Shown here one piece after another: positions 9,586-47,926 of a stretch of 50,505 nucleotides of DNA. The stretch is taken from NCBI GenBank assembly GCA_041665545.1, contig JBAYIQ010000006.1, forward strand, positions 1 through 50,505, read 5' to 3'. Origin of the DNA: Patescibacteria group bacterium (GTDB lineage: Bacteria; Patescibacteriota; Patescibacteriia; UBA1558; GWA2-36-10). Each line of letters starts with the position of its first letter. Within the stretch, counting starts at the first letter, position 1. The notes under the pieces were generated by a model. That model was not told where the DNA came from. It saw nothing but the letters and a program-made list of their open reading frames with translations, and searched no databases. The position numbers and the translations under genes are program-made.

Positions 9586-9699
9586 GGCTGGCCCCTTCCA
9601 CTGTCATTCCCGCGAAAGCGGGAATCTACCATTGTTATACCAATGGCAAATCAATGGTAGATCCCGGATCAAGTCCGGGATGACAATGAGGGGCCAGCC
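9586..9699. repeat. GTCA...TGAC nested-palindrome element, copy R1
   Basis: Core 9603-9684: GTCA-TTCCCGCgaaaGCGGGAA-TCTACCATTG..CAATGGTAGA-TCCCGGAtcaagTCCGGGA-TGAC. Outer 11-bp stem GGCTGGCCCCT (9586-9596) / AGGGGCCAGCC (9689-9699). Confidence 0.85.
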
Positions 9700-9834
9700 G
9701 GCTATTAAAAGAGAGGATATTATTCCCTAAAAAGCCCTATTTTTAGGCATATTTTTGCCTATTTTTGTATTTACAACTATCATAAATTATGATAAAATAA
9801 AGGCGATTTAATAAGTTTAAATAGCTTAAAAATT

Positions 9835-10440
9835 ATGTATATTTCGTGGCATGGCAACAACTATTTTAAGATACAAAATAGTCAGCATAGCATTGTTTTG
9901 GACCCCTATTCTTTAGACAAAAATTTTAAGTATGGCAAAGCCAAAGGCGACGTGGCTATTTTTACTGATCCCCAAGGCGTGGAGGGTTGTAAGCTAGACG
10001 AAGAGGCCATGGTCATTGCTAGCGCTGGCGAGTATGAAACCAAGGATATTTTTGTTTATGGACTACAAACCAACGGTCATTTGATTTACTTAATTATCTT
10101 TGAAGATGTGCGTATTGCTTTCTTGGGTGAGTATGGCCATCAGCCCTTGACTGACAAAGATTTGGAGCTGGTCTCTGGCGCGGATATTTTGCTACTACCA
10201 GTTGGTGGTGGTGCCATGGCCAATGCCAAAGAAGCCAACAACATCATCGGACAGATAGAGCCCAGATTGGTCATCCCTAGCGCCTATCAAGTCAAGGAGT
10301 TAAAAAATAAAGCAGATGGCTTGGAGCTGTTTATCAAAGAGTTTGGCATTAAGCCCGAAGAGCATGACAAGTTCAAAGTCAGCGCTAGAGATTTGCCTCA
10401 AGATGATTTGAAATTAATAGTTTTAAAAGCCCAGGTATGA
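9835..10440 (+). CDS. MBL-fold / UPF0173-like hydrolase (tentative)
   Basis: 201-aa ORF. The N-terminus MYISWHGNNYFKIQ..IVLDPY resembles UPF0173-type metallo-hydrolases, but the metal motif is not clearly seen. Confidence 0.45.
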   Translation: MYISWHGNNYFKIQNSQHSIVLDPYSLDKNFKYGKAKGDVAIFTDPQGVEGCKLDEEAMVIASAGEYETKDIFVYGLQTNGHLIYLIIFEDVRIAFLGEYGHQPLTDKDLELVSGADILLLPVGGGAMANAKEANNIIGQIEPRLVIPSAYQVKELKNKADGLELFIKEFGIKPEEHDKFKVSARDLPQDDLKLIVLKAQV

Positions 10441-10769
10441 TAATTTTGCAAAATAACAAAAACAAAATTTATTTAACACTGGTTTTGTCGCTGGTAACTT
10501 TTATCGGACTGATCTTTGTCTGGCAGAAATTCAGTGTTTCCTCACAAGCGGCTCCAAAACCAGAAGTAAAAAATGATAATATCGAAGTCAGCTCTATTTC
10601 CCAAGATATTCAAAATAATCTGGAGCTAGCCAAGTTGCAATGGGAAAATATGCAGGATCAATTAGCAAAAAACCAAAAGCAACAAGAGCTATTTAATACC
10701 GCGCAAGAATATTTAAAAAATAAAGCATCTTCAACACCAACCAGTACAGCATCTAGTACTGCTAACTAA
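10437..10769 (+). CDS. membrane-anchored hypothetical protein
   Basis: 110 aa with one N-terminal TM segment. ATGA overlap with the upstream gene. Confidence 0.4.
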   Translation: MIILQNNKNKIYLTLVLSLVTFIGLIFVWQKFSVSSQAAPKPEVKNDNIEVSSISQDIQNNLELAKLQWENMQDQLAKNQKQQELFNTAQEYLKNKASSTPTSTASSTAN

Positions 10770-10786
10770 TAGTAGATAATAGTTTT

Positions 10787-13303
10787 ATGCCTAAAGTAAA
10801 ATCAACAAAACCAAAAGATAAAAAACCAGAGTCAAAAGATTTGGCAGTCATCGGTGATTCCCAAAACGGCGGTCGCATTGAGTCACTATCTTTGGTAGAG
10901 GAAATGCAAAGCTCTTACCTTGACTATGCTATGAGTGTCATAGTCTCTCGTGCTTTACCCGATGTCAGAGATGGCTTGAAGCCAGTACATCGTCGGATTT
11001 TGTATGCCATGTGGAGTGTCGGCCTGAAGCACAATGTCAAGTTCAGAAAATCAGCTACAGTTGTCGGTGAAGTGATGGGCAAATACCATCCGCATGGCGA
11101 CTCGGCTATTTATGACACTATGGCGCGCATGGCGCAAGATTTTGCTATGCGCTATACCCTAGTCAACGGCCAAGGAAACTTTGGCTCTATGGATGGTGAT
11201 AGACCAGCGGCCATGCGCTACACGGAAGCCAAGCTGGAAGCTTTGGCTGAAGAATTATTGCTTGATATTGATAGAAATACAGTTGATTTTGTGTCCAACT
11301 ATGATGGCAGTCACCAAGAGCCCAAAGTTTTGCCAGCCAAATTACCAAACTTATTGCTCAATGGCGCCACTGGTATTGCGGTTGGTATGTCAACGGCTAT
11401 TCCACCGCACAATTTGGGAGAATTGATTGATGCTATAGTTACAGTCATAGAAAATCCGGAAGCCACGATTGATGATTTGCTGGAGTTTGTCAAAGGACCG
11501 GATTATCCGACTGGCGGAGTGATCTACAACGCTGATGATATAAAAACTGTTTATGCTACGGGCCGTGGCGGTATTGTCTGTCGCGGAGAAGCGGAAATTA
11601 CCGAGACTAAGGCCGGTCAATATCAGATAGTGATCACTTCTATTCCTTTCCAAGTCAACAAAGCGACTTTACTGGAAAAAATTGCTCAGCTAGTCAAAGA
11701 CAAAAAATTAGATGGCATCAAGGATTTGCGCGATGAGTCAGACCGAGAGGGTGTGCGAGTAGTGATTGAGCTCAAAAAAGAAGCTTACCCGAAAAAAGTT
11801 TTGAACAATTTGTATAAGCATACTCAGCTACAAGAAACTTTTCATGTTAATATGTTGGCCTTGGTAGATGGCTTGCAACCTCGGGTACTGACTTTGAAAA
11901 ATATTTTGGAAGAATATATCAAACACCGCCAAGTAGTGGTAGTCAGACGCACGCAATTTGATCTGGACAAAGCCAAAGAGCGGGCGCATATTTTGGAGGG
12001 CTTGAATATTGCTCTGGATAAGATTGATATGGTGATCAAGACCATTCGCGCTTCCAAAGATAAAGAAGTGGCCAAAATCAACTTAATGACCAAGTTCAAA
12101 CTTTCTGAAAGACAGGCCCTAGCTATTTTGGAAATGCGTTTGCAGAATTTAGCCAACTTAGAAAGACTGAAAATTGAGCAAGAGTTGAAAGACAAATTGA
12201 AATTGATCAAAGAATTGTCGGCCATCTTAAGCAGTAAAGCCAAAGTATTGGGTATCATCAAAGATGAACTAAAAGATTTGCGTGCTCGTTTTGCTGATGA
12301 GCGTCGTACTAGAATAGTGAAATCGGCGGTCAATAAAATGAGTACCGAAGATTTGATTCCCAATGAATCCACAGTCATTACCTTAACGCACGATGGCTAC
12401 ATCAAGCGGGTGTCGCCAGAAATTTTCAAGACCCAAGGCCGAGGTGGCAAGGGAGTGATCGGACTGACTACCAAAGAGCAAGATGAGGTGCAATTATTTT
12501 TGGCTACCAACACTCACGCTGATTTGATGTTTTTCACCAGCAAGGGCAGGGTGTTTCAGCTCAAGGCCTATGAAGTGCCGGCTATGTCGCGGACTTCCAA
12601 AGGTCAAAATATTGTGAACTTTTTGCAATTATCTCCAGAAGAAAAAATTTCTTCAATTTTGCAGAGTGAAGATTTTTCAGCTTTCAAATATTTTGTCATG
12701 GTGACTCGTTTGGGTATTATAAAAAAAGTGGCTTTAGACCAACTGAGCAATGTCCGTCGTTCAGGACTCATTGCCATCAAACTAAAAGGTGATGATTCAT
12801 TGAATTGGGTCCAGCCATCCACTGGCAAAGACGAGATTATTTTGGTGACGGCCAATGGCCAGTCGATCAGATTCCGTGAAAAAGATGTGCGCGATATGGG
12901 ACGCAATGCCGCTGGTGTTCGTTCAGTGCGTTTCAAGAAAAACGACGAAGTAGTGGGCTTTGATATCATTGCCGAAGGCAAAGCCGGCAAAGACGAGCAA
13001 CTATTTGTCATTATGACTCATGGCTTTGGCAAGCGTACCTCACTGTCTGCCTACAAAGTGCAGGCCCGAGGCGGTTCGGGTATCAAGACCGCCCAAGTAA
13101 GCGCCAAGACTGGTACCATTGCTGGCGCGCGCATCATCAGTTCGCGAGTGGAGAGTGAAGATATTATCATCATCTCCAAAAAAGGCCAAGTCATTCGCTT
13201 GCCTATAAAAGCAGTCAGTATTTTGGGACGCGCCACCCAAGGTGTGCGTTTGATGCGTTTCAAAGATGCTGACGACAAAGTGTCGAATATTACATTTATA
13301 TAA
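10787..13303 (+). CDS. gyrA: DNA gyrase subunit A
   Basis: Motifs DGLKPVHRRILY, GKYHPHGD and AAMRYTEAKL (catalytic Tyr), plus a C-terminal beta-pinwheel. Confidence 0.97.
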   Translation: MPKVKSTKPKDKKPESKDLAVIGDSQNGGRIESLSLVEEMQSSYLDYAMSVIVSRALPDVRDGLKPVHRRILYAMWSVGLKHNVKFRKSATVVGEVMGKYHPHGDSAIYDTMARMAQDFAMRYTLVNGQGNFGSMDGDRPAAMRYTEAKLEALAEELLLDIDRNTVDFVSNYDGSHQEPKVLPAKLPNLLLNGATGIAVGMSTAIPPHNLGELIDAIVTVIENPEATIDDLLEFVKGPDYPTGGVIYNADDIKTVYATGRGGIVCRGEAEITETKAGQYQIVITSIPFQVNKATLLEKIAQLVKDKKLDGIKDLRDESDREGVRVVIELKKEAYPKKVLNNLYKHTQLQETFHVNMLALVDGLQPRVLTLKNILEEYIKHRQVVVVRRTQFDLDKAKERAHILEGLNIALDKIDMVIKTIRASKDKEVAKINLMTKFKLSERQALAILEMRLQNLANLERLKIEQELKDKLKLIKELSAILSSKAKVLGIIKDELKDLRARFADERRTRIVKSAVNKMSTEDLIPNESTVITLTHDGYIKRVSPEIFKTQGRGGKGVIGLTTKEQDEVQLFLATNTHADLMFFTSKGRVFQLKAYEVPAMSRTSKGQNIVNFLQLSPEEKISSILQSEDFSAFKYFVMVTRLGIIKKVALDQLSNVRRSGLIAIKLKGDDSLNWVQPSTGKDEIILVTANGQSIRFREKDVRDMGRNAAGVRSVRFKKNDEVVGFDIIAEGKAGKDEQLFVIMTHGFGKRTSLSAYKVQARGGSGIKTAQVSAKTGTIAGARIISSRVESEDIIIISKKGQVIRLPIKAVSILGRATQGVRLMRFKDADDKVSNITFI

Positions 13304-13306
13304 TTT

Positions 13307-13981
13307 ATGAATAAAAAGGGTCATAATTTTATATTTATTGATGAGTCTGGTGATCCTGGAAAACCATATAAGATTGATAATGCTGGTAATAAGGTACCAA
13401 CAGGAGCTAGTTTATTTTATATACTTTCAGCTATATGTATTGATACTAGCCAGTTATTTTTGGCAGAGCATGAAATAATGAGAGTCAAAAATAAATATGG
13501 TTTTAGAAATGAAATTAAAAGCACGACCATACCACTAGTTCTATATAAAGACCTTTTGAAAATAATCAACAAACTAGATGTGCAGGTGTATTATCGCTTG
13601 GTGGACAAGAAAAAATACACGGGTCAATTTGCTGTCTCTGGTAAAAGAAATTTACACAACATGTTTGATGAATATAATTTGGCTAAATTAGTAAAATTTG
13701 CTATACAAAAATGTAATCTTGACAATACAGAGGTGGTTATCGATCGGGCTGATCGCAGATTGTTGGATGGGGAGTTCATCAATTTTAATAAATATTTGAT
13801 GCACAAAGTGAACACTAAGACCATCAAAAGAATAAGCCATATTACGCATGTTGACTCAGAATATGTTAATGTTATGCAGATGTCGGATCTGATTAGTGGG
13901 GCCATAAAAGATAGTTTTACTGGGAAGAATAAAGATCTTAAGAAGATTATTAATAAAAATTTACTGCATAAAATTTGGTAA
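13307..13981 (+). CDS. DUF3800-like protein
   Basis: The N-terminal IFIDESGDPG motif is characteristic of DUF3800. 224 aa. Starts 3 nt after the gyrA stop. Very AT-rich. Confidence 0.55.
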   Translation: MNKKGHNFIFIDESGDPGKPYKIDNAGNKVPTGASLFYILSAICIDTSQLFLAEHEIMRVKNKYGFRNEIKSTTIPLVLYKDLLKIINKLDVQVYYRLVDKKKYTGQFAVSGKRNLHNMFDEYNLAKLVKFAIQKCNLDNTEVVIDRADRRLLDGEFINFNKYLMHKVNTKTIKRISHITHVDSEYVNVMQMSDLISGAIKDSFTGKNKDLKKIINKNLLHKIW

Positions 13982-14108
13982 AATAAAAAAGCGGGCACCC
14001 AGACCTGGGACACGCTTCAATTGAATATTATCACAATGATTATATTTGTCAAGTCATTGATGTCAATTATCTAATTTATTATATATTTTAGTTCACGATA
14101 TTAATAAA

Positions 14109-15122
14109 ATGAGCGAAAGAGTCATTTCAGCCGTAGAACAAAGCTCTGACAAAGTGCTAGACCTGACTTTGCGGCCACAAAATTTGCAAGACTATATTGG
14201 TCAGACTCAGGTCAAGGCCAATCTTGATATTGTTTTGCAGGCGGCCAAGGGAAGGCAGGAACCACTGGATCATGTCTTGCTCTATGGACCGCCGGGCTTG
14301 GGCAAAACTACTCTAGCGCACATCATAGCCCGCGAAATGGGCGCTGGTATCAAGGTGACTTCTGGCCCAGCTATTACCAAGGCCGGGGATTTGGCGGCCG
14401 TGATTACCAATTTACAGCCCGGTGATGTTTTGTTTATTGATGAAATACATCGTCTCAACAAAACCATTGAAGAGATACTTTATCCAGCCATGGAGGATTT
14501 TGCTTTGGATATTATTTTGGGCAAAGGTCCGTCAGCCCAGATATTGCGTTTGGATTTACCTAAGTTTACTTTGATTGGTGCTACTACCAGATACAACCTG
14601 CTGTCTTCGCCCCTGAGGGACAGGTTTGGCATGACTTTTCGTTTGGATTTTTATAGCCCTGAAGAGCTGGCTGATATTTTGAAGCGCTCCAGCCATATCC
14701 TGGGAGTGCAGATTGTACCCGAAGCTCGTAAAGAAATAGCTGATCGCAGTCGGGCTACGCCACGTATTGCCAATCGCATTTTGAAACGCGTGCGTGACTA
14801 TGCTCAGGTCAAGTCAGACGGCAATGTGTCAATTGATCTGACCAAAAAATCTTTAGACTTAATGGCGATTGATAAATACGGCTTAGATGATCTAGATCGT
14901 CGTTTGCTCAAAACCTTGATTGATAATTTTAAAGGCGGGCCAGTGGGCCTCAATACTCTAGCAGCCGCTATCCAAGAAGAAGCCGGCACTATTGAAGAGA
15001 TATTTGAACCCTATTTGATGCAACTGGGGTTTTTGGCGCGTACCGCCAAAGGTCGGGTGGCAACAGTGAGAGCTTATGAATATTTTGGATTGAAGGCGCC
15101 GGAGGATGGGAAGTTGTTTTAA
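14109..15122 (+). CDS. ruvB: Holliday junction branch-migration helicase RuvB
   Basis: Motifs [31 protein letters not shown] and a C-terminal winged helix. Confidence 0.97.
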
Positions 15123-15140
15123 GGAATTTTACAAAATATT

Positions 15141-15400: not shown

Positions 15401-15452
15401 CTAAAAGTATTTTGTCATATTAATAATAAATGGATAAAATTATTTTAAAAGT

Positions 15453-17665: not shown

Positions 17666-17668
17666 GCC

Positions 17669-17723
17669 GTCATCCCGCACTTGTTGCGGGATCTAGCAAG
17701 ATTCCTGCCTACGCAGGAATGAC
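17669..17723. repeat. GTCA...TGAC nested-palindrome element, copy R2 (55 bp)
   Basis: GTCA-TCCCGCActtgtTGCGGGA-TCTAGCAAGA-TTCCTGCctacGCAGGAA-TGAC, between queH and queA. Confidence 0.85.
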
Positions 17724-17729
17724 AAGCAT

Positions 17730-18767: not shown

Positions 18768-18773
18768 AAACAA

Positions 18774-18798
18774 CACTACCGCCTGGTTGGCGGTAGTG
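18774..18798. terminator. 10-bp-stem hairpin CACTACCGCC-tggtt-GGCGGTAGTG
   Basis: Directly after the queA stop. The T-run is on the minus-strand side only. Confidence 0.4.
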
Positions 18799-19009
18799 CT
18801 TAGAAATCTTCCATGCTATGATATTCAATTGTCAGCAATATTTCAAGCTTTTCCATCAAGGACAACTATTATTTTTTTATTTAATCCCGGGCTGTGTGGC
18901 CTTTGGGATGTTTTAGTTATGCCTCATGGTCGCTCAAAATTGAGAATGAACTATAAACAGGGTTATTATAGCACATTTGGGCTTATTCAAAAAATTCAAC
19001 AGAAATTAT

Positions 19010-20356
19010 TTATAAAAATAAAATTATTAATAAATTAGTGATTACAAAAAATAAATGGGATTCAGTAAAATATCTAGATAAAAACCAGACCCCACCCATT
19101 AATAGTGTACCGTGTAAATAGACATTTTTTTGGGTATTGTTTTTATATTGTCTATATAAAAACAGCGGTAAAAAGGTAATAATAAATATTGTTTGCCAGA
19201 TAGCAAAATTATAAAATTGAGTTGGTTCAGAAATAATTTTCAGCTGTAGCAGTAAGCCAGCTAGTCCAAGCCCACGTGCTGGATAAAGATGGCCTAAGTA
19301 GTAAACTGTGTCGTGGTAGAAGGCCTTGGGATCCCATAAAATAAAAGGTAATAGTATAAGACAGACAAGAAACAGCATTACGAGTGGGTATTTAATAAAT
19401 TTTAATAAGGATTGTTTATTAATTGGTAAATACTTTTTAAATAAAATAAATGTTAAAAAGAAAGGCCAGAAAAAGATCATGTTTTGCTTAGTTAGGCCGG
19501 CTAAGCTGATCATAATGATTGAAAAAGTATAACGCTCTTTTTTTAAGAAAAAATACGCCCATAATAAAAAATACAGCGGGACTATATCACCAAAACCAAA
19601 AATTATGTCCGTGTATAAGAAAGTATTTAATGTAAAAAACAATAGTAATCCATTTTTCTTTTTTAAACTGGAGGGCAGTTTATATATTAGTAGACAAGCT
19701 AATAGGTATATTAGAAAATTGAGTATTCTATTATCATAAAAGTGAAAAATATTTATAAACACATATTTAAATGGTAGCGGTAAAATAAAGAAAAGCGGCA
19801 TATAAACATAGTTTTCCAAAGCCGGATTAAGCATTGTCCATTGTTTATGAACGCTGTCAAATTTTATCCAGTGATAGGTTTCATTATCCATAGCAGTACC
19901 ATAGTAATCTTCTTGGTATGGATTTTTTCCTTTTAGGATATAGTCAACCGCCGTTTCAGTCTGTAGAATACCATCCTGAGGGCTCCAAGCCGGGTTAGTA
20001 TTGTTGTATCGCCTATAGATATTTATTGATAAAATTAAAGCTTGGATTATTAAGAAACAAATTATTATCAATATTTTATTTTTATTATTATTTTTTTTAA
20101 TTGCCCAGTAATAAAAAATAGCTAATAAAGAAAAAATAAGTAATAAAACAAGTGATATTAACGTGAAACTACTGTTGTTAATTATATTTTCGGGGTTGAA
20201 GTCTAGGTTTGTAAAGAAAAGTTTTAAATAATCTAAGACACTTGAGAAAAACATAATCGATAAGATAAAAAAAAGAGTAAATTCCCAAGAACTATACTTG
20301 ATTAACATTAAGTAGGGTGAAAGGAGATCGTCAAAAGTTTTTTTAATTTTTTCCAT
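19010..20356 (-). CDS. polytopic GT-C-like membrane glycosyltransferase (DUF2029/GT87-like), paralogue 2
   Basis: 448 aa with at least 10 TM segments. First loop motif DGILQTE..YILKGKNPY. Collinear with the upstream paralogue. Confidence 0.5.
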   Translation of the reverse strand: MEKIKKTFDDLLSPYLMLIKYSSWEFTLFFILSIMFFSSVLDYLKLFFTNLDFNPENIINNSSFTLISLVLLLIFSLLAIFYYWAIKKNNNKNKILIIICFLIIQALILSINIYRRYNNTNPAWSPQDGILQTETAVDYILKGKNPYQEDYYGTAMDNETYHWIKFDSVHKQWTMLNPALENYVYMPLFFILPLPFKYVFINIFHFYDNRILNFLIYLLACLLIYKLPSSLKKKNGLLLFFTLNTFLYTDIIFGFGDIVPLYFLLWAYFFLKKERYTFSIIMISLAGLTKQNMIFFWPFFLTFILFKKYLPINKQSLLKFIKYPLVMLFLVCLILLPFILWDPKAFYHDTVYYLGHLYPARGLGLAGLLLQLKIISEPTQFYNFAIWQTIFIITFLPLFLYRQYKNNTQKNVYLHGTLLMGGVWFLSRYFTESHLFFVITNLLIILFL

Positions 20357-20364: not shown

Positions 20365-21711
20365 TTATAAAAACATAGCTATTATCAAATTAGTAATAAC
20401 AACGCCAAGATGAGCCTCAGTAAAATTTCTAGAGAAAAACCACATCCCAGTCATTAATATGGTGCCATATAGATAGACGTGTTGAGGATTATTTTTTTTG
20501 AATTGTTTATATAATAGTAATGGTAAAAAAATTATAATAAATGTGACTTGCCATAAAACAAAACCATAATATTTTAGTGGGTCGCTAATAATATGTAAAT
20601 TCAATAATAATCCAGCTAACCCAACCCCACGAGCGGGGTATATATATTTAAGGTAGGTAACAGTGTCATAATAAAAAGCTCCCGGGTTCCATAAAATAAA
20701 AGGTAATAATATGACGCAACATAGAAGTAACATTATGAGTGGGTATTTAAGGTATTGTAGAAATGATCGCTGGTTAAGAGGCCAGAATTTTTTAAATAAA
20801 ATGTATGCTAAAAAGAAAGGCCAAAAAAATATTATATTTTGTTTACTTAAACCGGCAATGCTGATCATAATTATTGACTTGGAGTATTGCTCTTTTTTCA
20901 AATAATAGTAACTAGACAGTAAGAAGAGAAGGGGCAATATATCATTGAACCCGAAAACCATATGTAGATAAAAAAAATTATTCAAAGTGAAAAATATAAG
21001 GGCGCAATTTTTTTTCTTTTGGGTTTTTGGTATTTTGTAGATAAAAAAACAAGCCAGCAAGTAAATTATGAAATTGAAAATACGATTATCATAAAAACCA
21101 AAAATATTCGTGAACATTATTTTTAAAGGCAAGGGTAGAATAAAGCTAAGGGGCATATATACATAGCTTTCCAAGGCCGGGTTAATAAACCTCCATACTT
21201 TGCCGGCTCCACCCATTGTAATATAGTGGTCTCTAAAATTATCCATAGCAGTCTCGTGGTAGTTTTCTTCGTATGGATTTTTACCTTGCATTAACAAATT
21301 CATAGCTACTTCAGTTTGAGCAATGCCATCATGAGGGAGTGTATCTATGCGAGGATTGTTAAATCTTACATTAATTCTTGCAGCCACAGTCAAACCCTGT
21401 ATTAATAAAATGAAGATTATAACGACTATTTTAATTCTGTTCAGGTTTTTTTTAATTGCCCAAAAGTATATATATGACAAAGAATAAAAAATTACTATGC
21501 TTAAAAAAGTAAAAAAGAGCACCTGTGTGCTTAATTTGTCGGGATTCAAATAAATATTTTTTAATGTTATAAATTGGCAAGTCATATTGATTGTAACATC
21601 AAAAAAGATTGCCAGTAAAATGAAGAAAAAAACAAACTCCCAGGAGAGATATTTTATAATTATTAGGTATGGCGAAGCTAGTCCCCTAAGCGTTCTTTTT
21701 ATTTTTTCCAT
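20365..21711 (-). CDS. polytopic GT-C-like membrane glycosyltransferase, paralogue 1
   Basis: Also exactly 448 aa. Alignable end to end with 19010-20356 (MEKIK.T...SPYL.IIKY.SWEF ... ITNL). Loop motif DGIAQTE..LLMQGKNPY. Confidence 0.5.
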   Translation of the reverse strand: MEKIKRTLRGLASPYLIIIKYLSWEFVFFFILLAIFFDVTINMTCQFITLKNIYLNPDKLSTQVLFFTFLSIVIFYSLSYIYFWAIKKNLNRIKIVVIIFILLIQGLTVAARINVRFNNPRIDTLPHDGIAQTEVAMNLLMQGKNPYEENYHETAMDNFRDHYITMGGAGKVWRFINPALESYVYMPLSFILPLPLKIMFTNIFGFYDNRIFNFIIYLLACFFIYKIPKTQKKKNCALIFFTLNNFFYLHMVFGFNDILPLLFLLSSYYYLKKEQYSKSIIMISIAGLSKQNIIFFWPFFLAYILFKKFWPLNQRSFLQYLKYPLIMLLLCCVILLPFILWNPGAFYYDTVTYLKYIYPARGVGLAGLLLNLHIISDPLKYYGFVLWQVTFIIIFLPLLLYKQFKKNNPQHVYLYGTILMTGMWFFSRNFTEAHLGVVITNLIIAMFL

Positions 21712-25575: not shown

Positions 25576-25605
25576 AATAAGAAAAATTTGCTATAATATC
25601 GATGC

Positions 25606-25660
25606 GTCATCCCGCACTTGTTGCGGGATCTAGCTAGATTCCTGCCTGCGCAGGAATGAC
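25606..25660. repeat. GTCA...TGAC nested-palindrome element, copy R3 (55 bp)
   Basis: GTCA-TCCCGCActtgtTGCGGGA-TCTAGCTAGA-TTCCTGCctgcGCAGGAA-TGAC. Near-identical to R2 and R7. Confidence 0.85.
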
Positions 25661-25678
25661 AGTTCAAATAACACAATA

Positions 25679-26486: not shown

Positions 26487-26600
26487 GGCTCGCTGACCCC
26501 TTAGGATGTCATGCCGAACTTGTTTCGGCATCTCCATTAGCCACTTAGCAATTTGAGATCCTGAAATAAATTCAGGATGACAATATGAGGTCAGCGAGCC
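26487..26600. repeat. GTCA...TGAC nested-palindrome element, copy R5
   Basis: Core 26508-26581: GTCA-TGCCGAActtgttTCGGCA-TCTC..GAGA-TCCTGAAataaaTTCAGGA-TGAC. Outer 12-bp stem GGCTCGCTGACC (26487-26498) / GGTCAGCGAGCC (26589-26600). Confidence 0.85.
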
Positions 26601-27466: not shown

Positions 27467-27480
27467 AAGTTTGTTTATTC

Positions 27481-27571
27481 GTCATCCCGCACTTCCGCCA
27501 AAGGCGGACAGGTGTTGCGGGATCTAGTTTTAGATTATTACAAACTAGATTCCTGCCTACGCAGGAATGAC
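27481..27571. repeat. GTCA...TGAC nested-palindrome element, copy R4 (91 bp, expanded)
   Basis: Same ends and hairpins as R2/R3. It carries an extra hairpin CCGCCaaaGGCGG (27495-27507) inside hairpin 1 and an extended central stem TCTAGTTT..AAACTAGA. Confidence 0.85.
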
Positions 27572-27578
27572 AGCAAGT

Positions 27579-31418: not shown

Positions 31419-31569
31419 CCGCTGACACACCCATTGTCATCCTGAATTTATTTCCCCCGGCCCGCCATAGGCGGAGCCTCGCAGAATGCGGGGCGAGCAG
31501 GATCTCAAATTGCAGAGTGGCAACGGAGATGCCGAAACAAGTTCGGCATGACAGCGTTAGGGTCAGCGG
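31419..31569. repeat. GTCA...TGAC nested-palindrome element, copy R6 (R5-type, inverted, with a 44-bp insertion)
   Basis: Core 31436-31552. Hairpin GCCGAACTTGTTTCGGC is identical to that of R5. A 44-bp GC-rich insert (31454-31497, containing CCGCCataGGCGG) splits the TCCTGAA..TTCAGGA hairpin loop. Outer stem CCGCTGAC (31419-31426) / GTCAGCGG (31562-31569). Confidence 0.85.
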
Positions 31570-39545: not shown

Positions 39546-39644
39546 AAAAAATACTCCAACCCTGCTGTCATCCCGCACTTGTTGCGGGATCTCGCTAGAT
39601 TCCTGCCTTCGCAGGAATGACGCTATAAAGTCGGAGTATTTTTT
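39546..39644. repeat. GTCA...TGAC nested-palindrome element, copy R7, inside a terminator-like outer stem
   Basis: Core 39567-39621: GTCA-TCCCGCActtgtTGCGGGA-TCTCGCTAGA-TTCCTGCcttcGCAGGAA-TGAC. Outer stem AAAAAATACTCC (39546-39557) / GGAGTATTTTTT (39633-39644). Confidence 0.85.
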
Positions 39645-42070: not shown

Positions 42071-43957
42071 TTACACCTCTATTACTACCGGTAAGATCAT
42101 AGGTCTACGTTCAGTTTTTTGGAAAATGTATTGACCTAAGTCATTGCGTAAAGTTTCTTTGATGTAGGTTTCGTTTATTTGTGAATTAGTCTTGTTGTGT
42201 TCGTTGACAATATTTTTTACTTTGGTGCGAATGGTTTCTACCAATTCTTTTTGCTCGCGCATGTAAATAAAGCCACGAGAAATAATATCAGGTGAGTGTA
42301 CCATTTTTCCATTTTTACCAGAGATAGTGACAATGACCACAATCATGCCATCCTCAGCCATCATTTGTCGGTCGCGCAAAACAATGTTGGACACATCGCC
42401 AACTCCCAAGCCATCGACAAACACATAGTCAGTCAGGACCTTTTCTTTGGTAAGCTGTCCTTGGCGATTGAGGTCAAACTCAATCACCTGACCATTGTCA
42501 GCCACAAATATATTTTCGGGCTTGATGCCAGCGCGTAAAGCCACTTTAGCGTGGATGCGTAAAAAGGAGTGGTTGCCATAGATAGGAATGTGGTATTTTG
42601 GTTTGACCATGTTTATCAGGTCCAAGAGGTCCTCTTGTTTGGCGTGGCCACCAGCGTGTACGTCCATCATTTTGTAATGAATGACGTCAGCCCCTAGGCG
42701 ATAGAGCTGGTCTTTGAGTCGCTGGACCGATCTTTCATTGCCTGGAATTACGGATGAGGAAAATACTACCGTATCTCCTTTTTCAATTTTTAAGCTGCGG
42801 TGTTCTTTATTGGCAATACGCATCAAAACAGCATTGTCTTCGCCTTGGGCACCAGTGCAGAGGATAATAACTTTGTTATCGGCATAATGGCGCATTTCTT
42901 TGATGTCAATGATGGTGCCTTTTTTGACAGTCATGTAGCCAAGCTGTTGGGCTAGTTCAACATTGCGCTTCATACTGAAACCTTCGATTACTATTTTTTT
43001 ACCTAGCTTTTCGGCTGACCAGATGATCTGTTGGATACGTCCTAAGAGTGAAGAGAAAGTACCGACAATAACGCGAGCTGGTGCTTGACTCAAAATGTCG
43101 TCAATATTGTGCTGAATGTCAAATTCAGCTAATTGATGTCCGGGCTCGGTAGCATTGGTACTGTCAGCCATCAGGGCCAAAATATTTTGTTTGCCTAAGT
43201 TTTTTATTTTTTCCATCTCGGCTGGCGCATCGCCGGAAGTTTTTGGGTCAAGCTTGAAGTCACCAGTGTGCACTACTTTGCCAGCCGGTGAATCCAAGAT
43301 AACGCCCAAGGATCCAGGAATATTGTGGGAGACACCAAAAAAAGTGGCTCGGAATTTTCCCAGTTGTAAGACGCTATCTTTTTGGATTGATTTTAATCTT
43401 AAAGGGCTGGTTTTGAAATCCTCCTGTCTTTTGGAAATGATTCCCAAAGTCAAAGGCGTGCCATAAATAACGGGGTTGCCTAAAATAGGAGCCAAGTGAG
43501 GCACAGCGCCAATATGATCATAGTGTCCGTGGGTAATGATTACACCGCGGATATTTTTTTCTTTGCCTTTCAAGTAAGCAGTGTTGGGGATGATATAGTC
43601 AATACCCGGCATGTCTTCTTCGGGCCATTGTAAGCCCATATCAATAATGACAATGTCATTTTCATATTCAAAGACAGTCATGTTGCGACCGACTTCTTCA
43701 CAGCCACCCAAAGGTATGATGCGTAGCTTGCCCTTGCTTACTAACAAATTTTTTGTTCGGTGAGCATGAGCTTTGGGGTCAGTAATTTTTTTAGCTTGGG
43801 GAGTTAGGCCTTGGCTAAAGTTTTTTTGTCGCTTGTTTTTGTTCAAGCGGGGACCGTGCTTAGGAGCGCGGTGCGGATTTGTTTTGGATCGGGATCCATG
43901 TTTGATAGAAACATTTGGCGTTAGCCTTCTATCAGTCATATCAGAATTTACATTCAT
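42071..43957 (-). CDS. rnj: ribonuclease J (MBL / beta-CASP) with a ~70-aa basic N-terminal extension
   Basis: Motifs ITHGHYDHIG, GDFK.D and HASGHA-like HAGGHAKQED. Confidence 0.92.
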   Translation of the reverse strand: MNVNSDMTDRRLTPNVSIKHGSRSKTNPHRAPKHGPRLNKNKRQKNFSQGLTPQAKKITDPKAHAHRTKNLLVSKGKLRIIPLGGCEEVGRNMTVFEYENDIVIIDMGLQWPEEDMPGIDYIIPNTAYLKGKEKNIRGVIITHGHYDHIGAVPHLAPILGNPVIYGTPLTLGIISKRQEDFKTSPLRLKSIQKDSVLQLGKFRATFFGVSHNIPGSLGVILDSPAGKVVHTGDFKLDPKTSGDAPAEMEKIKNLGKQNILALMADSTNATEPGHQLAEFDIQHNIDDILSQAPARVIVGTFSSLLGRIQQIIWSAEKLGKKIVIEGFSMKRNVELAQQLGYMTVKKGTIIDIKEMRHYADNKVIILCTGAQGEDNAVLMRIANKEHRSLKIEKGDTVVFSSSVIPGNERSVQRLKDQLYRLGADVIHYKMMDVHAGGHAKQEDLLDLINMVKPKYHIPIYGNHSFLRIHAKVALRAGIKPENIFVADNGQVIEFDLNRQGQLTKEKVLTDYVFVDGLGVGDVSNIVLRDRQMMAEDGMIVVIVTISGKNGKMVHSPDIISRGFIYMREQKELVETIRTKVKNIVNEHNKTNSQINETYIKETLRNDLGQYIFQKTERRPMILPVVIEV

Positions 43958-43979
43958 AATTTAATTGTTAATTAGTTGT

Positions 43980-45809
43980 TTATTTTTTAAGAGAACGCTT
44001 GGTTTTGATGTACCAAGTGTTGATAGTACTCAAGCGGTCAGCTGGCAAGTTGATGAATTGGACTTGATCCAAGCCCTTTAACTTGTTGGCTACCGGGTAA
44101 GTATAAGTTGGGCTATATAAAAATACAGCAAAATTTAGTTCAGTTATTTTTTTCTGGAAGTTTTTTAATGGTTCAATTTTGGCTTCCAAGGTGCTAGCGT
44201 TTCTGGCCTGTTCCAAGTATTTATCAATATCCTTGTTGCCTAAGTTTGATAAATTGAGGCCAGGACTTTTGACCTGCGAAGAGTGCCAGAATAGATACGG
44301 TCCAGAATTAATATTTAATTGTTCGCTAAAAATCAAAGCTTGATAATTGCGTGGTTCAATGACTTCTTTGAGCATGCGTTCGCGAGGGATGATTTCCAGT
44401 TGGGTTTTGATACCAAGGGCTTCCCAATTTTCTTTGATGATTGAGGCGGCTTTGGTCATTTCTGGCTGGTCAATGGTGGTGATTTTTAACTCAGCTGTGG
44501 AAGTGCTTTTACCTTTGGTAATAATGCGCCATTCACTGCCTTCGACTTTTTTGTAGCCAAGTTTGTCTAATAATTCGGCAGCTTTGTTTTGATTGCCAAG
44601 TTCGGTTTTGATATTAGAGTCATAGCCCATATCGCCAGGCAAGACTGGGGAATAAATTATTTGGCCATTGTTTTCAGCGGCCTCTCTAATAATCCTTTCT
44701 TTATCGACACTAAGGTCAAGCGCTTGGCGAAAATTATTTTCAGCCAAAAGAGCATTATTGCCAGGGTTGAAAAACACAGCGGTGTAGCGGGGGTTGTGTA
44801 GCTCCTTGAGTGTCAGGTCATTATTTTTGACGCTATTTTTGTATTCGTTGGGCAAGTAAGCCAGGCCCTCAACATTTTTGTTTTGCAAAGCCTGTACGGC
44901 TGTCTGGAAGTCGGGATAAAATTTGAAAATCAAATCCTTAATATATGGCTGGCCAGCGTGATATTTATCAAAACTTACTAAGGCATAGGTTTTGATGTTG
45001 CCACTCTGATCCTTGGTTAGGGATTTGAACATATAGGGACCGCAACCAATTGGCTTGATATTTAGTTCGGTCAGGGGAGCGCCAATAGCTGGTATGCTGT
45101 ACCACAAATGTTCTGGCAAAATTCCGATGGTCAAGGAAGACAAAAACAATGGGTTTGGTTTTTCTAGATTGAATTGAATGGTATTTTCATTTAGGGCCTG
45201 GACATTGACTCCTGAAAAAGTAGAGCGGTAGGGACTTTTGTATTCAGCTTTTTTTATACTTTCAATAGTAAAGATTATATCCTCAGCCGTCACTGCTTCA
45301 CCATCGTGCCACTGCAAGCCAGAGCGTAATTCAAAAGTATATTGGTCTTGGTTGGCGTTGATAGTATAGCCGCTAGCCAAGTCTGGTTGCAGAGAGCCAT
45401 TGCCATCGGTTTTCATCAGGCCAGCATAAACCAATTTGCTTAGGTCGCGGTCAGAATCACTGGTGGCCAAAATTGGATTGACATAAAAAGGAGCGCCGAC
45501 CATGCCTTCAATATAGCTACCACCAAAAGCAGGGGCTTCTTGGGAGTGCTTGATATAGAATCGCCAAGTCAGAGCGCAAGCCGAGCCCAGTAAAATAATA
45601 ATAGCTAAAAATAATTGAGCTTTTTCCAAGCGGTTTAGAAATTTTGGCAATTGTCTGAACTGGTGCCAGCTAGGAATTTTCTTTTTATTTAAATTCAAAA
45701 TCAATTGTTGATCGTCATCAGGCTGTTCTTTGGGGAAAAAGAACCTCTTTATTTTTCTAATCAAATAGAAAGATGCTAACAAAAATTTTTGGGTTTTTTG
45801 TTTAGCCAA
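43980..45809 (-). CDS. ABC transporter substrate-binding protein, family 5 (OppA/DppA-like), N-terminally TM-anchored
   Basis: 609 aa. SBP_bac_5-like motifs (LVYAGLMK, WHDGEAVTAEDI). Apparent TTG start. Confidence 0.8.
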   Translation of the reverse strand: MAKQKTQKFLLASFYLIRKIKRFFFPKEQPDDDQQLILNLNKKKIPSWHQFRQLPKFLNRLEKAQLFLAIIILLGSACALTWRFYIKHSQEAPAFGGSYIEGMVGAPFYVNPILATSDSDRDLSKLVYAGLMKTDGNGSLQPDLASGYTINANQDQYTFELRSGLQWHDGEAVTAEDIIFTIESIKKAEYKSPYRSTFSGVNVQALNENTIQFNLEKPNPLFLSSLTIGILPEHLWYSIPAIGAPLTELNIKPIGCGPYMFKSLTKDQSGNIKTYALVSFDKYHAGQPYIKDLIFKFYPDFQTAVQALQNKNVEGLAYLPNEYKNSVKNNDLTLKELHNPRYTAVFFNPGNNALLAENNFRQALDLSVDKERIIREAAENNGQIIYSPVLPGDMGYDSNIKTELGNQNKAAELLDKLGYKKVEGSEWRIITKGKSTSTAELKITTIDQPEMTKAASIIKENWEALGIKTQLEIIPRERMLKEVIEPRNYQALIFSEQLNINSGPYLFWHSSQVKSPGLNLSNLGNKDIDKYLEQARNASTLEAKIEPLKNFQKKITELNFAVFLYSPTYTYPVANKLKGLDQVQFINLPADRLSTINTWYIKTKRSLKK

Positions 45810-45876
45810 AACTAAAGAGTTTTTTATTGACTGCCAAGAGGGCTTTATATTTTTAGCATTAAATATTAAAACCAGT

Positions 45877-46095
45877 TTAGCTGATAAACAAGCTAGCTAA
45901 GGCAGAGGCCAAAAACAAGAAGCTCAAAACAATAGTTAAGCGGAAAATGAATTTTTCAGCTCCTCGTTTGGTGCGATAGATGGCGCTGTCGCCACCAAAA
46001 GTGGCACCCAGGCCCGATCCTTTTTGTTGTAACAAAATCGTTACTATTAACAAAATAGAAATAACGATTTGCAAGATGTTCAAGATATTTTTCAT
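45877..46095 (-). CDS. secG: preprotein translocase subunit SecG
   Basis: Trimmed to the internal ATG. MKNILNILQIVISILLIVTILLQQKGSGLGATFGG...RG.E..IFRLT. TTGACA-17-TAATAT promoter at 46114-46142. Confidence 0.85.
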   Translation of the reverse strand: MKNILNILQIVISILLIVTILLQQKGSGLGATFGGDSAIYRTKRGAEKFIFRLTIVLSFLFLASALASLFIS

Positions 46096-46113
46096 GTGGA
46101 GAATTAAATTAGC

Positions 46114-46142
46114 TTTTTGAATATTAGCATAAAGAAAGTTTA
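46114..46142 (-). promoter_or_regulatory. secG promoter TTGACA-17-TAATAT
   Basis: TGTCAA at 46137-46142 and ATATTA at 46114-46119 on the plus strand. Confidence 0.6.
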
Positions 46143-46272
46143 TTGTCAATGTCGGGGCATATTTTGATGCTAAATATTGACTTGGGATTATAGCTTGTAG
46201 TAGTATAGGGCGGTAAGTGTATAATGATGTTTTTAGGGGTGTTGGTGGGTGTTTCAGACCTGGAGGTGAAAC

Positions 46273-46431
46273 ATGAGCGTTGACAATCATGACGCCGAGT
46301 CCACTCCGACTTGGCAAATTCGAGACATCAGAGAGATTGTGTGTCCAGTGGATTCGCCCCATTATCTCCAATGTGACTGTGATTCCTGTCGGGCCATGTT
46401 GGAGATCGAGCTCCAGAAGCACCGCCGTTAA
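46273..46431 (+). CDS. island W micro-ORF 1 (52 aa, CPx9CxCxxC)
   Basis: GGAGGTG lies 4 nt before the ATG. MSVDNHDAESTPTWQIRDIREIVCPVDSPHYLQCDCDSCRAMLEIELQKHRR. Below the ORF-track cut-off. Confidence 0.35.
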   Translation: MSVDNHDAESTPTWQIRDIREIVCPVDSPHYLQCDCDSCRAMLEIELQKHRR

Positions 46432-46463
46432 CAATGAGGCATTCCCAGTCAAGGAGGCGATTC

Positions 46464-46595
46464 ATGAAGATCGGGTATTCTCACAGAAGAACCGCTGGTG
46501 TGTTCAGTCGGCACCGGCAGCGTCAACGCCGGCGTGCTCAGGCCGAGTACCGACGCATTCGTCAGCGCGGTCGCGTACGGCGAGGTCGTCGGTAA
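46464..46595 (+). CDS. island W micro-ORF 2 (43 aa, 17 Arg)
   Basis: AAGGAGG lies 6 nt before the ATG. MKIGYSHRRTAGVFSRHRQRQRRRAQAEYRRIRQRGRVRRGRR. Confidence 0.35.
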   Translation: MKIGYSHRRTAGVFSRHRQRQRRRAQAEYRRIRQRGRVRRGRR

Positions 46596-46635
46596 TTGGA
46601 TTCGCTCGTCGACATTTGATCTTTCCGCGTTTCTT

Positions 46636-46675
46636 AGGCCGTTCCCTGTTTCTGGGGGACGGCCTGATTTTTTAT
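46636..46675 (+). terminator. intrinsic terminator AGGCCGT-N16-ACGGCCT plus T-run
   Basis: Stem arms at 46636-46642 and 46659-46665, followed by GATTTTTTAT. Confidence 0.7.
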
Positions 46676-46708
46676 AAAAAAGAGGCGAACAGTTGGACTG
46701 CTCGCCTC
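46671..46708 (-). terminator. intrinsic terminator GAGGCGA-N13-TCGCCTC plus minus-strand T-run
   Basis: Stem arms at 46682-46688 and 46702-46708. Lies downstream of the 292-aa ORF stop. Confidence 0.65.
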
Positions 46709-46723
46709 GAGAATCTATGGGTG

Positions 46724-47602
46724 TCAGAAGTCTTCTTCTTCTCTGATGCCGATTTCGATCAGAGAATCTCTGCCTAGCTGATGGAGTGCCGGGTAAAGGG
46801 CTCGGTTCTGCTTCTCAGTGTCTAGCGGCTGGCCAAAGATATTGAGCCAGGCTCGCCGCAAGAATGAGTCTGTGAACCGGCCGTATTTGCTATTGCCAAG
46901 GGTACGGCGATAGAAGCTGACACGGTCGGCGAGGATCAAGATCACCTGCTGAAGCGCCTCACTGCGCACTTGATGTGTTTGACGCTCATCCTCGTGCTGA
47001 TTGCGCTCTTGCTGATAGCGAACCCTGTTAGCATGTTCAGCCAGCAAGAGACCAGTCAGACGATTGTACACTTCGCCTTGCGGTCGATCCAGTAGCTCGA
47101 AGAGCTGGGGCAGTTCAGCGAACTTGAAACGCAGGCGATTGTTGGAATCATCGGATGCTTGCAAACCAGAAGCACTGAGGTCATGATCTAACACCTGGAA
47201 ATAGCTCCAGTCAAAGTATCCGACAAGCTCATGACCTCTGATGAAAATGCGACTGCCCCAATGACCGCCAATAGACACCTCGCAATAGGTGTCTACCAGT
47301 GGTTCGTTGTTGATGCCACGTGGCAAAAGTCGGTGAGCATGAGGTTCACCCTTGTCCATGAACCAATATTCGCGATGCCGCAAAAATATTGGTTCACCAA
47401 TAGCGATGAGTAGCCATAGACCGAGTAAGATAAGGACAATTTTGTAGTAAATGTTTGGGGTTGAAGAAATTAACGCACTGATAATCGTGAAGAGGACGAT
47501 AAACGTCGGGATCGCGATCTTGTGACCAACGCGATGAGCTCCACTACGAGCTTTTTGGCAGAGCTCACATTCGGGTTCGCACTTAACATTGGGTTGACTC
47601 AT
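46724..47602 (-). CDS. island W membrane protein (292 aa), no recognised family
   Basis: TAGGAGG lies 5 nt before the ATG. N-terminal CEPECELC, two TM helices, then a ~200-aa soluble region with a charged coiled-coil-like stretch. Confidence 0.6.
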   Translation of the reverse strand: MSQPNVKCEPECELCQKARSGAHRVGHKIAIPTFIVLFTIISALISSTPNIYYKIVLILLGLWLLIAIGEPIFLRHREYWFMDKGEPHAHRLLPRGINNEPLVDTYCEVSIGGHWGSRIFIRGHELVGYFDWSYFQVLDHDLSASGLQASDDSNNRLRFKFAELPQLFELLDRPQGEVYNRLTGLLLAEHANRVRYQQERNQHEDERQTHQVRSEALQQVILILADRVSFYRRTLGNSKYGRFTDSFLRRAWLNIFGQPLDTEKQNRALYPALHQLGRDSLIEIGIREEEDF

Positions 47603-47742
47603 CTTGACCTCCTATCGATAGGCTCATTTGTCCTACCGAGGGAAGCGCCGCTAATTGGCTATTCAGCTTGACATTATTATCAGCTGACATTCCAATCAGG
47701 GCTAGTGACACCATAGATTTTGAAAGGGCATTTAATGGGATA

Positions 47743-47771
47743 AACTTATTATCATTTATATTTTTTGTCAA
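47743..47771 (-). promoter_or_regulatory. TTGACA-17-TAAGTT promoter with a ~140-nt leader for the 292-aa ORF
   Basis: TGTCAA at 47766-47771 and AACTTA at 47743-47748 on the plus strand. The palindrome CCTATCGATAGG (47611-47622) overlaps the SD. Confidence 0.5.
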
Positions 47772-47802
47772 ATAAAAAAGAGTCACTGGTGTTTGTAATA
47801 TC

Positions 47803-47926
47803 GTCATTCTGGAGCGCAGTCGCGTCTGACGCGGCGAAGCGATAGAATCTATAAGCTAGTGTATTGTAGTAGATTCTATCGGTCGTTACCTGCCTGCCGG
47901 CAGGCAGGCGCTCCCTCCAGAATGAC
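47803..47926. repeat. GTCA...TGAC nested-palindrome element, copy R8 (124 bp, divergent)
   Basis: GTCATTCTGGAG ... CGCGtctgaCGCG ... ATAGAATCT-N20-AGATTCTAT ... CCTGCCTGCCGGCAGGCAGG ... CTCC(c)TCCAGAATGAC. Confidence 0.8.

Follow-up and report, generated by a model that had tools for sequence, protein, structure and literature searches.

Repetitive extragenic palindromic (REP) sequences with a terminal CGTC tag were described as families CGTC-1 to CGTC-4 by Di Nocera, De Gregorio and Rocco (2013, BMC Genomics 14:522; PMC3733652). In these repeats an unpaired CGTC, replaced by TGTC in many of them, is followed by a stem of 8-9 base pairs (bp) beginning with A-T and T-A, a loop of 4 nucleotides (nt) in CGTC-1 or 5 nt in CGTC-2 to CGTC-4, and a short, unpaired 3-nt tail with the consensus CCA (PMC3733652). 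They occur mainly as head-to-head dimers with the tags outside, often as heterodimers and in some cases within larger palindromes, and are extragenic, lying between unidirectional or convergent open reading frames (ORFs) near the 3' end of the upstream ORF. CGTC-1 is the same repeat as dRS3 of Neisseria and RPE-6 of Rickettsia (PMC3733652). The 28-nt NTS of Neisseria (CGTCATTCCCGCGMAVGCGGGAATCYRG), which contains dRS3, and a degenerate Ssn-related motif (SRM; HGTCWYN(0-2)YYVSBRHN(0-5)WNVSBRGN(0-2)RNCYNB) were described by Chenal et al. (2025, Nat Commun 16:2388; PMC11893778), who found such motifs flanking genes of the GIY-YIG nuclease family Ssn (cd10448) in the arrangement NTS-ssnA-NTS. Here we analyze 50,505 bp of a Patescibacteria group bacterium (contig JBAYIQ010000006.1; this whole stretch is hereafter the window), which contains eight intergenic inverted hairpin doublets, E1 to E8 in window order. 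These are head-to-head heterodimers of CGTC-tagged REP units, identical in kind to the NTS/SRM of Chenal et al., and we consider it probable that they are recognized by Ssn nucleases. A preliminary description of the stretch had recognized no named family in them, a claim that is superseded by their placement in the CGTC-tagged REP superfamily (PMC3733652), alias the Ssn-related motifs (PMC11893778).

The eight elements claimed in the preliminary description are all present, each bounded by GTCAT...ATGAC. Their inverted hairpin structure is real, but the nested-palindrome design ascribed to them reduces to a simpler rule, namely two tag-outward copies of one unit. The unit consists of (C/T)GTC, an 8-bp stem, a 4- or 5-nt loop, the complementary half of the stem and C-T-N, and the first two pairs of every 8-bp stem in the window are A-T and then T-A. 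All eight elements are tag-outward (head-to-head) dimers, none of them a homodimer, and seven of the eight comprise two perfect units. The tag is CGTC or TGTC in 14 of 14 intact units, and the 3-nt tail is CTA, CTC or CTT, always with C first. Twelve units have 4- or 5-nt loops (GAAA, GNAG, CTTGT, CTTGA or TTTAT): the stems ATTCCTGC and ATTCCCGC carry the 4-nt loops GNAG or GAAA, and the stems ATCCCGCA, ATGCCGAA, ATCCTGAA and ATCCCGGA carry the 5-nt loops CTTGT, CTTGA or TTTAT. In four more units the loop is split by a GC hairpin. For SsnA, cutting depends on the GTC before the palindrome, and the most important base for binding is the C that immediately follows it (PMC11893778); all 14 intact units of the window have both critical residues, with GTC before the stem and C directly after it. 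The eight doublets are listed below by window coordinates.

9586-9701 (E1): head-to-head heterodimer of a CGTC-1-type unit on the forward strand (9602-9629; stem ATTCCCGC, loop GAAA) and a CGTC-2-type unit on the reverse strand (9657-9685; stem ATCCCGGA, loop CTTGA); the spacer ends are complementary and an outer stem (GGCTGGCCCC/GGGGCCAGCC) surrounds the whole; rpsA and a metallo-beta-lactamase-fold (MBL) hydrolase gene diverge on either side of it, each at a distance of 150 nt.

17668-17724 (E2): minimal 55-nt heterodimer of ATCCCGCA/CTTGT and ATTCCTGC/CTAC, starting 3 nt past the queH stop codon and ending 6 nt before the queA start codon; in the region 17701-17729 its right stem puts an AGGA about 11 nt upstream of the queA ATG, which might serve as a ribosome-binding site.

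25605-25661 (E3): minimal 55-nt heterodimer of the E2 sub-family, between the pcrA stop codon and an RNaseH-like/WYL gene and just downstream of a TGcTATAAT box (25585-25600), so that it would sit in the 5' untranslated region (UTR) of that gene.

26487-26600, core 26508-26581 (E4): heterodimer of ATGCCGAA/CTTGT and ATCCTGAA/TTTAT within an outer palindrome (GGCTCGCTGACC/GGTCAGCGAGCC), in the convergent spacer between the RNaseH-like gene and folD.

27480-27572 (E5): member of the sub-family of E2, E3 and E7 with a longer, stem-forming spacer and, in the loop of its left unit, a 19-nt insertion (27495-27513) containing the hairpin CCGCCAAAGGCGG; it starts 7 nt past the glyA stop codon and ends 14 nt before the folD start codon.

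31419-31569, core 31436-31552 (E6): member of the E4 sub-family in reversed orientation, in a convergent spacer, with a 44-nt double hairpin inserted in one unit (31454-31497) and an outer stem (CCGCTGAC/GTCAGCGG).

39550-39640, core 39567-39621 (E7): minimal 55-nt heterodimer in the convergent spacer after murI, flanked by an unrelated 8-bp outer stem (AATACTCC/GGAGTATT).

47803-47926 (E8): member of a diverged sub-family with the stem ATTCTGGA, both ends GTCATTCTGGAG, an inner palindrome (GATAGAATCTA/TAGATTCTATC) and GC hairpins at 47817-47834 and 47889-47908; it starts 18 nt past the uvrC stop codon.

Four copies had been described as wrapped in an additional outer stem. This stands for copies 1, 4 and 6, whose related stem (GCTCGCTGRCC) is part of a composite repeat, but the stem of copy 7 is unrelated. 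E4 and E6 are one composite in opposite orientations. The related outer palindrome (GGCTCGCTGACC, GCGGCTCGCTGGCC, GGCTGGCCCC) encloses four doublets from different sub-families, with arms at window 9586-9602/9685-9701, 26487-26498/26589-26600 and 31419-31426/31562-31569, and at L246 7826-7845/7919-7940 (L-numbers denote loci from other records or from the window flanks; L243 and L246 belong to the same genome as the window). It recalls the 41-bp palindromes that surround all CGTC-1 dimers of H. neapolitanus (Di Nocera et al., PMC3733652). A second kind of embellishment is seen in copies 5, 6 and 8, where a loop or stem half is broken by a small GC-rich hairpin (window 27495-27513, 31454-31497, 47817-47834 and 47889-47908; for example, CCGCCAAAGGCGG, CCGCCATAGGCGG, GTCGCGTCTGACGCGGC and CCTGCCTGCCGGCAGGCAGG). 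Likewise interrupted units are found in unrelated genomes (L046, L074, L094, L103, L106 and L116). The inserted GC hairpins may belong to a second class of tiny repeats with hairpin loops as their targets, or may be the remains of spacers that were ancestrally longer.

The units are far more frequent than chance would produce. By first-order Markov resampling (100 resamples), 0.01 strict units are expected in the window and 12 are present; for all hairpins with an 8-bp stem, strict or not, 2.9 are expected and 21 present. A covariance model built from 83 distinct units of many genomes and run with filters off recovers precisely the 12 intact units, with scores of 33-44 bits. A match of 16.8 bits comes next, on the reverse strand of a hairpin already among these 12, and no match falls within a gene of the window. 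As single-stranded DNA (ssDNA) the elements fold into two-, three- or four-way structures with z-scores of -3.7 to -9.0, in agreement with the multi-way fold proposed in the preliminary description.

To place these units in a wider context we collected 237 loci from other genomes. A degenerate unit pattern matched at least 119 stretches in a one-genome-per-species collection and an exact-stem pattern at least 118 metagenome stretches, from which the 119 genome and 118 metagenome loci of the sample derive; the search patterns required CT in the tail. The idea that the stems vary while remaining complementary is confirmed by shuffles, by slid controls and by two less biased tests. In the alignment of 83 distinct units, 98.4% of the cells are paired, both sides have changed in six of the eight pairs, and columns 5-6 and 24-25 do not vary. 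None of 500 shuffles reaches the observed covariation score, and slid controls also remain far below it. Since this alignment had been selected for pairing, two less biased tests were added. When two stem pairs were left free in the genome pattern search, 140 of 143 matches were Watson-Crick at both, in five combinations. When units were defined solely by GTCAT-N6-loop-N6-ATC, the mismatch count was bimodal with a peak at zero, and the two locus sets contained 23 and 30 distinct, perfectly complementary inner stems. The picture of structure-conserved hairpin repeats arranged as inverted doublets is borne out.

Comparison with CGTC-1 and CGTC-2 reveals agreement in nearly all features. The window units share with them the C/TGTC tag, the 8-bp stem that opens with AT, the 4- and 5-nt loops and the short unpaired tail, as well as the arrangement as head-to-head heterodimers, some within palindromes, with complementary spacer ends and an extragenic position near 3' ends. 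They differ in having CTA, CTC or CTT tails instead of the CCA consensus of 2013, in that every dimer pairs two unit types, often CGTC-1 with CGTC-2, in the secondary GC-hairpin insertions of several loops, and in their host, as the candidate phyla radiation (CPR)/Patescibacteria is absent from the five phyla listed in 2013. The likeness extends to individual sequences: window 9603-9627 translates to VIPAKAGI and SFPRKRES, the very peptides encoded by intragenic CGTC-1 copies of R. conorii (Additional file 3 of PMC3733652). The window shares its unit type with the rickettsial RPE-6 and RPE-4 (CGTC-1 and CGTC-4 in R. conorii), the RPE-6 peptides being equal to that translation; rickettsial copies, however, often lie in frame inside genes, whereas intragenic copies are lacking in the window.

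The NTS and SRM are matched as well. With the 28-nt NTS consensus, three units of the window are found at three or fewer mismatches against 0.00 expected, the best with two mismatches, and the SRM search sequence gives five exact unit matches against 0.1 expected. Window units retain the GTC tag as well as the C that follows the palindrome, and single genes are flanked by them (E3-gene-E4-gene-E5) in the manner of NTS-gene-NTS. They differ from NTS/SRM in that most lie just outside the published degenerate motif, and in being arranged almost exclusively in tight head-to-head doublets, not in large clusters around genes for surface proteins. A further likeness is to the REPIN-RAYT system and the E. 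coli BIMEs, built of GTAG-tagged REPs, which are likewise extragenic, with tagged hairpins paired in inverted orientation and the pair multiplying as a whole. In contrast to REP sequences of the REPIN-RAYT system, which are species-specific, the unit types of the window are near-identical across phyla.

Carriers of the units among the matches listed span many phyla, the CPR among them, and include Gracilibacteria, Saccharibacteria, Kerfeldbacteria, Falkowbacteria, Magasanikbacteria and Roizmanbacteria, as well as Gastranaerophilales, Bacteroidota, Sphingomonads, Rickettsiales, Treponema, Elusimicrobiota and Ignavibacteria. Of 241 units in the 237 other loci, 211 have T or C in front of GTC. 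The loops CTTGT, CTTGA and TTTAT, all of 5 nt, predominate, and tag-outward pairs outnumber tag-inward pairs by 57 to 18. In eleven of the loci (L208, L093, L164, L175, L169, L167, L157, L022, L104, L026 and L019), tandem arrays of half-units (GTCATCCCGCAC followed by ~9-11 nt) with a period of ~20-22 nt precede a complete hairpin unit, and in L208 and L093 these arrays lie directly upstream of a GIY-YIG gene. The half-unit arrays could be protein-binding arrays or products of slippage.

A pointer to a partner enzyme comes from the same loci. In the metagenome flanks, small ORFs beginning MK..Y(F/Y)VYI..N stand directly after a unit, and a profile search covering all ORFs of at least 50 amino acids (aa) in the 237 loci detected ten GIY-YIG ORFs (PF01541), seven of which form one sub-family. 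Four of these seven (L093, L185, L208 and L212) show strict bracketing, with a tag-outward unit no more than 80 nt away on each side. In the other three, the 3' unit is degenerate (L043), the gene has a unit just upstream and the contig ends beyond it (L026, a metagenome-assembled genome (MAG) of Kerfeldbacteria in the CPR), or the hairpins on both sides are untagged (L162). Seventeen of 4627 other ORFs are bracketed likewise, all of them unrelated genes or spurious frames. In this sample of 237 loci, GIY-YIG is the sole protein family found to be repeatedly bracketed by units. These other bracketed ORFs were set aside as partner candidates, being ordinary genes (low-molecular-weight (LMW) phosphatase/ArsC-like, peptide deformylase, ApaG and DUF1697) or frames through repeat arrays. 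When ORFs with 90 aa or more near the units of the 119 genome loci were clustered all against all, no recurrent family emerged, and the largest cluster spanned six loci; this first clustering did not group the small GIY-YIG genes, which were brought out by reading the flanks and by the profile search with the 50-aa limit. A comparison with solved structures found no relative of the GIY-YIG proteins. The bracketing of GIY-YIG genes by units was thus recovered independently, in loci belonging to several phyla, though the link is already published (PMC11893778), and units of the window type bracket small GIY-YIG genes in other genomes as NTS do ssnA in Neisseria.

The properties of SsnA fit the anatomy of the units. 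The enzyme binds the hairpin only as ssDNA, leaving duplex DNA and RNA unbound, cuts a few nucleotides 5' of the tag, and lowers transformation by NTS-bearing DNA about five-fold in Neisseria (PMC11893778). Among genomes with more than 200 SRM, 81% have an SsnA homologue, and SRM-rich genomes are enriched in symbionts (PMC11893778). A dedicated enzyme, as surmised in the preliminary description, is probable, with the elements being recognized as ssDNA, and it would belong to the GIY-YIG Ssn class.

That description had instead pointed to a Y1/RAYT or IS200/IS605-type enzyme, which appears to be the wrong class, as the tag is YGTC rather than GTAG and the published partner is a GIY-YIG Ssn nuclease. 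HUH enzymes recognize a hairpin together with a short unpaired guide or tag, as is established for IS608 and RAYT, and this mode of recognition, together with the shared REPIN/BIME architecture of inverted doublets of tagged hairpins, would suit REPINs of a non-GTAG type that serve as substrates of RAYT or of an IS200/IS605 TnpA. The single-copy enzyme gene bracketed by repeats is common to REPIN-RAYT and the GIY-YIG-linked units, but the former combines a GTAG tag with a Y1 HUH transposase and the latter a YGTC tag with a GIY-YIG nuclease. In CGTC-positive species no Y1 transposase gene flanked by CGTC units was found in any case, and a possible loss of the dedicated enzyme was proposed (Di Nocera et al., PMC3733652). 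No Y1 gene was found in the window, and no transposase family recurs near the units of the 237 loci, where GIY-YIG alone is recurrently bracketed. We therefore regard a Y1/HUH enzyme as very improbable. Slightly less probable still is that the doublets are target sites of a site-specific recombinase or an IS110-type element, as dRS3 is for filamentous prophages of Neisseria. This precedent, dRS3 as a known phage recombinase target, is taken from work cited in PMC11893778, and the window itself contains a XerC/D-like integrase gene (199-1098). The latter, however, looks like a housekeeping Xer-type gene, no element is interrupted except by the tiny GC hairpins, and serving as a target would account for how the repeats are used but not for how they arose or multiplied.

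The placement of the doublets bears on a further alternative, that they act in RNA. As had been claimed, all eight elements are strictly intergenic (P ~2e-7 in a window that is 85% coding), and seven begin 3-37 nt past a stop codon. Their spacers had been given as co-directional and convergent, which applies to four and three copies, respectively, but copy 1 lies between divergent genes. GC skew is positive over nearly the whole window, and orientation relative to replication gave no usable bias: the four A-to-B heterodimers all point the same way and a fifth, just outside the window, points the opposite way. Proximity to stop codons, the stability of the hairpins on both strands, the AGGA of E2 11 nt before the queA ATG and the position of E3 after a -10-like box are what would be expected of bidirectional terminators, 3'-end stabilizers or 5'-UTR regulators, and many REPs are argued to be transcribed (Di Nocera et al., PMC3733652). 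Yet U-tracts are missing from all 16 outward flanks (16 nt on each strand of the eight elements), a loose terminator scan accepts just one inner unit, and canonical terminators exist elsewhere in the window (4454 and 18772-18800). An RNA hairpin does not require the unpaired GTC tag and C-tail that are conserved across phyla, E1 lies between divergent genes, and relatives manage without the elements at the same sites. A terminator or structured RNA as the primary role, one of the options raised in the preliminary description, is thus disfavored by the lack of U-tracts, by the conservation of tag and tail and by the failure of SsnA to bind RNA (PMC11893778), and we hold an RNA-level module to be improbable, if somewhat less so than a Y1/HUH enzyme.

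The recent history of the doublets can be followed in relatives of the source organism and in the sequence adjoining the window. The readable part of the source genome amounts to ~62 kb, namely the window with 2.1 kb upstream and 9 kb downstream; the flanks come from a 169-kb European Nucleotide Archive (ENA) contig (ERZ27249449 k141_1076410) whose overlap with the window is 100% identical. Contigs of six relatives are syntenic for glyA-folD-RNaseH-like-pcrA...queA, and their pcrA genes are 67-88.5% identical in nucleotide sequence to that of the window. The covariance model found zero units in ~109 kb of syntenic DNA of these six relatives, so the comparison of presence and absence suggested in the preliminary description favors recent gain. 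At the E3 site, L121, L250, L251 and L249 have a short, empty spacer right after the TATAAT box, and the element is also absent from the most distant relative, L123. In L122, a degenerate element of the GTCATTGCGAG...GCAGGAATGAC kind (GTCATTGCGAGCGCC...GGCGAGCAGGAATGAC; 11760-11805) stands at the exact E3 junction (TATAATATCGATGC|, window 25606-25660), which suggests that the site was occupied ancestrally, its content turning over rapidly, or else was hit on two occasions. Where the window has E4 and E5, the relatives carry either an ordinary hairpin or another type of hairpin-pair repeat (CCTCCCCTTGACAGGGGAGG plus CCCCCTTGTCAAAGGGGG). This repeat is framed by CCCC.../...GGGG (L121 9924-10000, L122 9925-10000 and 10841-10931, L250 9917-10000) and looks like another REP-like family that fills the same spacers in relatives without CGTC units.

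The 9 kb downstream of the window contain three more doublets: one identical to E7 at 54 of 54 positions (L246 5387-5440), one of the GTCATTGCGAG type, and a short, 73-nt relative of E8 (L246 7846-7918) with an outer palindrome of the same family. The recurrence of doublets indicates that the doublet, rather than the single unit, multiplies. The expansion in the host lineage is recent, and the proposed mobility of the elements is probable, since presence and absence among relatives and identical copies within the genome fit a recent spread.

These observations bear also on the possibility that the elements are orphan relics, i.e., CGTC-REP/SRM without a cognate Ssn, neutral or mildly useful hairpins spread by recombination, gene conversion or transfer. 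Such a state would be in keeping with the lack of an ssn gene in the ~62 kb of the source genome, with the SRM-rich genomes that have no SsnA homologue (19%; PMC11893778) and with the enzyme loss proposed by Di Nocera et al. (PMC3733652). The 54/54 identical copies and the absence from relatives at 88% identity, however, argue for very recent, active multiplication, tag and C-tail are intact in 14 of 14 units, and the ~62 kb make up just ~6% of the genome, for which a size of ~1 Mb is assumed. We consider orphan relics unlikely, though the least so of the alternatives discussed here.

Several points count against the reading of the elements as SRM heterodimers recognized by Ssn nucleases. Among genomes with more than 200 SRM, 19% are without a detectable SsnA homologue (PMC11893778). 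In the ~62 kb of the source genome no ssn-like gene was found, in which it differs so far from the Neisseria NTS/SsnA system, and only the GIY-YIG domain of UvrC matches the profile; likewise, only UvrC matched in the contigs of the six relatives. The GIY-YIG proteins bracketed by units match PF01541 and would be putative members of cd10448. No target-site duplication is visible at E3, the one clean filled-versus-empty site, and Ssn-driven mobilization is so far hypothetical. Finally, only five of the 14 intact units fit the published SRM search sequence, and units with the stems ATTCCTGC, ATGCCGAA and ATCCTGAA fail it at one degenerate position, the V at the third inner position of the stem, which excludes T. 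The stem ATCCTGAA is the commonest cross-phylum unit (109 of 241, in a sample drawn with a pattern including that stem). As the published SRM misses most window units as well as the ATCCTGAA type, the published censuses probably undercount the family.

If the doublets do have an Ssn partner, as we prefer, they would be recognized by at least one Ssn nuclease whose gene lies in another part of the chromosome, outside the ~62 kb. Each strand of a tag-outward doublet would present one sense unit at its 5' side, so that the enzyme could nick each strand just outside the doublet. Such nicking would take place when the DNA is single-stranded, as in DNA uptake, replication or cruciform extrusion, and could be the basis of either a restriction of incoming DNA or the multiplication of the doublets. 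The doublets would then have multiplied recently as units in a MITE-like (miniature inverted-repeat transposable element) or REPIN-like manner, with any effects on mRNA being secondary. Of the features of a MITE, inverted ends are present and no duplication is visible at the filled-versus-empty E3 site. An IS1595 transposase gene is nearby (L246 8485-9150). A resemblance of the Ssn hairpins to insertion sequences was raised solely as a hypothesis by Chenal et al. (PMC11893778). A bolder version, in which the doublets are non-autonomous mobile elements mobilized in trans by an Ssn-type GIY-YIG nuclease, comparable to REPINs and in a recent burst in a CPR lineage, is suggested by the identical copies within the genome, the absence from relatives at 88% identity and the geometry of nicks just outside the doublet; we put it forward tentatively, as a possibility on the doubtful side.

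The window has 38.9% G+C and is crowded with housekeeping genes (ftsH, rpsA, gyrA, ruvB, queH, queA, pcrA, folD, glyA, Elp3, murI, RNase J and uvrC). Its proteins score weakly against equivalog models, and the nearest named FolD homologues are from MAGs of Komeilibacteria and Patescibacteria, which, together with the gene content, points to a CPR host. Rfam at gathering thresholds and a scan for tRNA and tmRNA found nothing in the window. Two tandem paralogous genes of 448 aa (19010-20356 and 20365-21711), with a weak match to the glycosyltransferase family GT87, contain stretches that are ~72-84% identical (repeat families D1, D16 and D20). Nucleotides 1-123 of the window recur exactly 2.1 kb upstream in the same genome (L243 4-126), and two small ORFs lie between these 123-nt repeats, immediately ahead of the XerC/D-like integrase gene. 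The repeats may represent attachment sites of a small integrated element. Just past the other end of the window (L246 8485-9150), a DDE transposase gene of the IS1595 family and an HTH_17 gene take the place of the segment that, in the Joint Genome Institute (JGI) contig (Ga0376277_0003431), ends with a 187-aa ORF (window 49696-50259).

The family and its partner enzyme were thus already known, and what is new here is the host lineage, the evidence for a recent burst and the hint that the published motif is too narrow. The host range of CGTC-REP/SRM extends to a bacterium of the Patescibacteria/CPR, with a small genome by appearance. CPR bacteria depend on DNA uptake, so the cleavage of incoming single strands at these units by a nuclease could matter to them. 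The density of about one doublet per 6 kb, if kept over a genome with an assumed size of ~1 Mb, would amount very roughly to 300 units, which would fit the remark of Chenal et al. on symbionts among SRM-rich genomes (PMC11893778). Relatives without the repeats at the same sites, together with identical copies within one genome, provide before-and-after material for the study of mobilization by Ssn.

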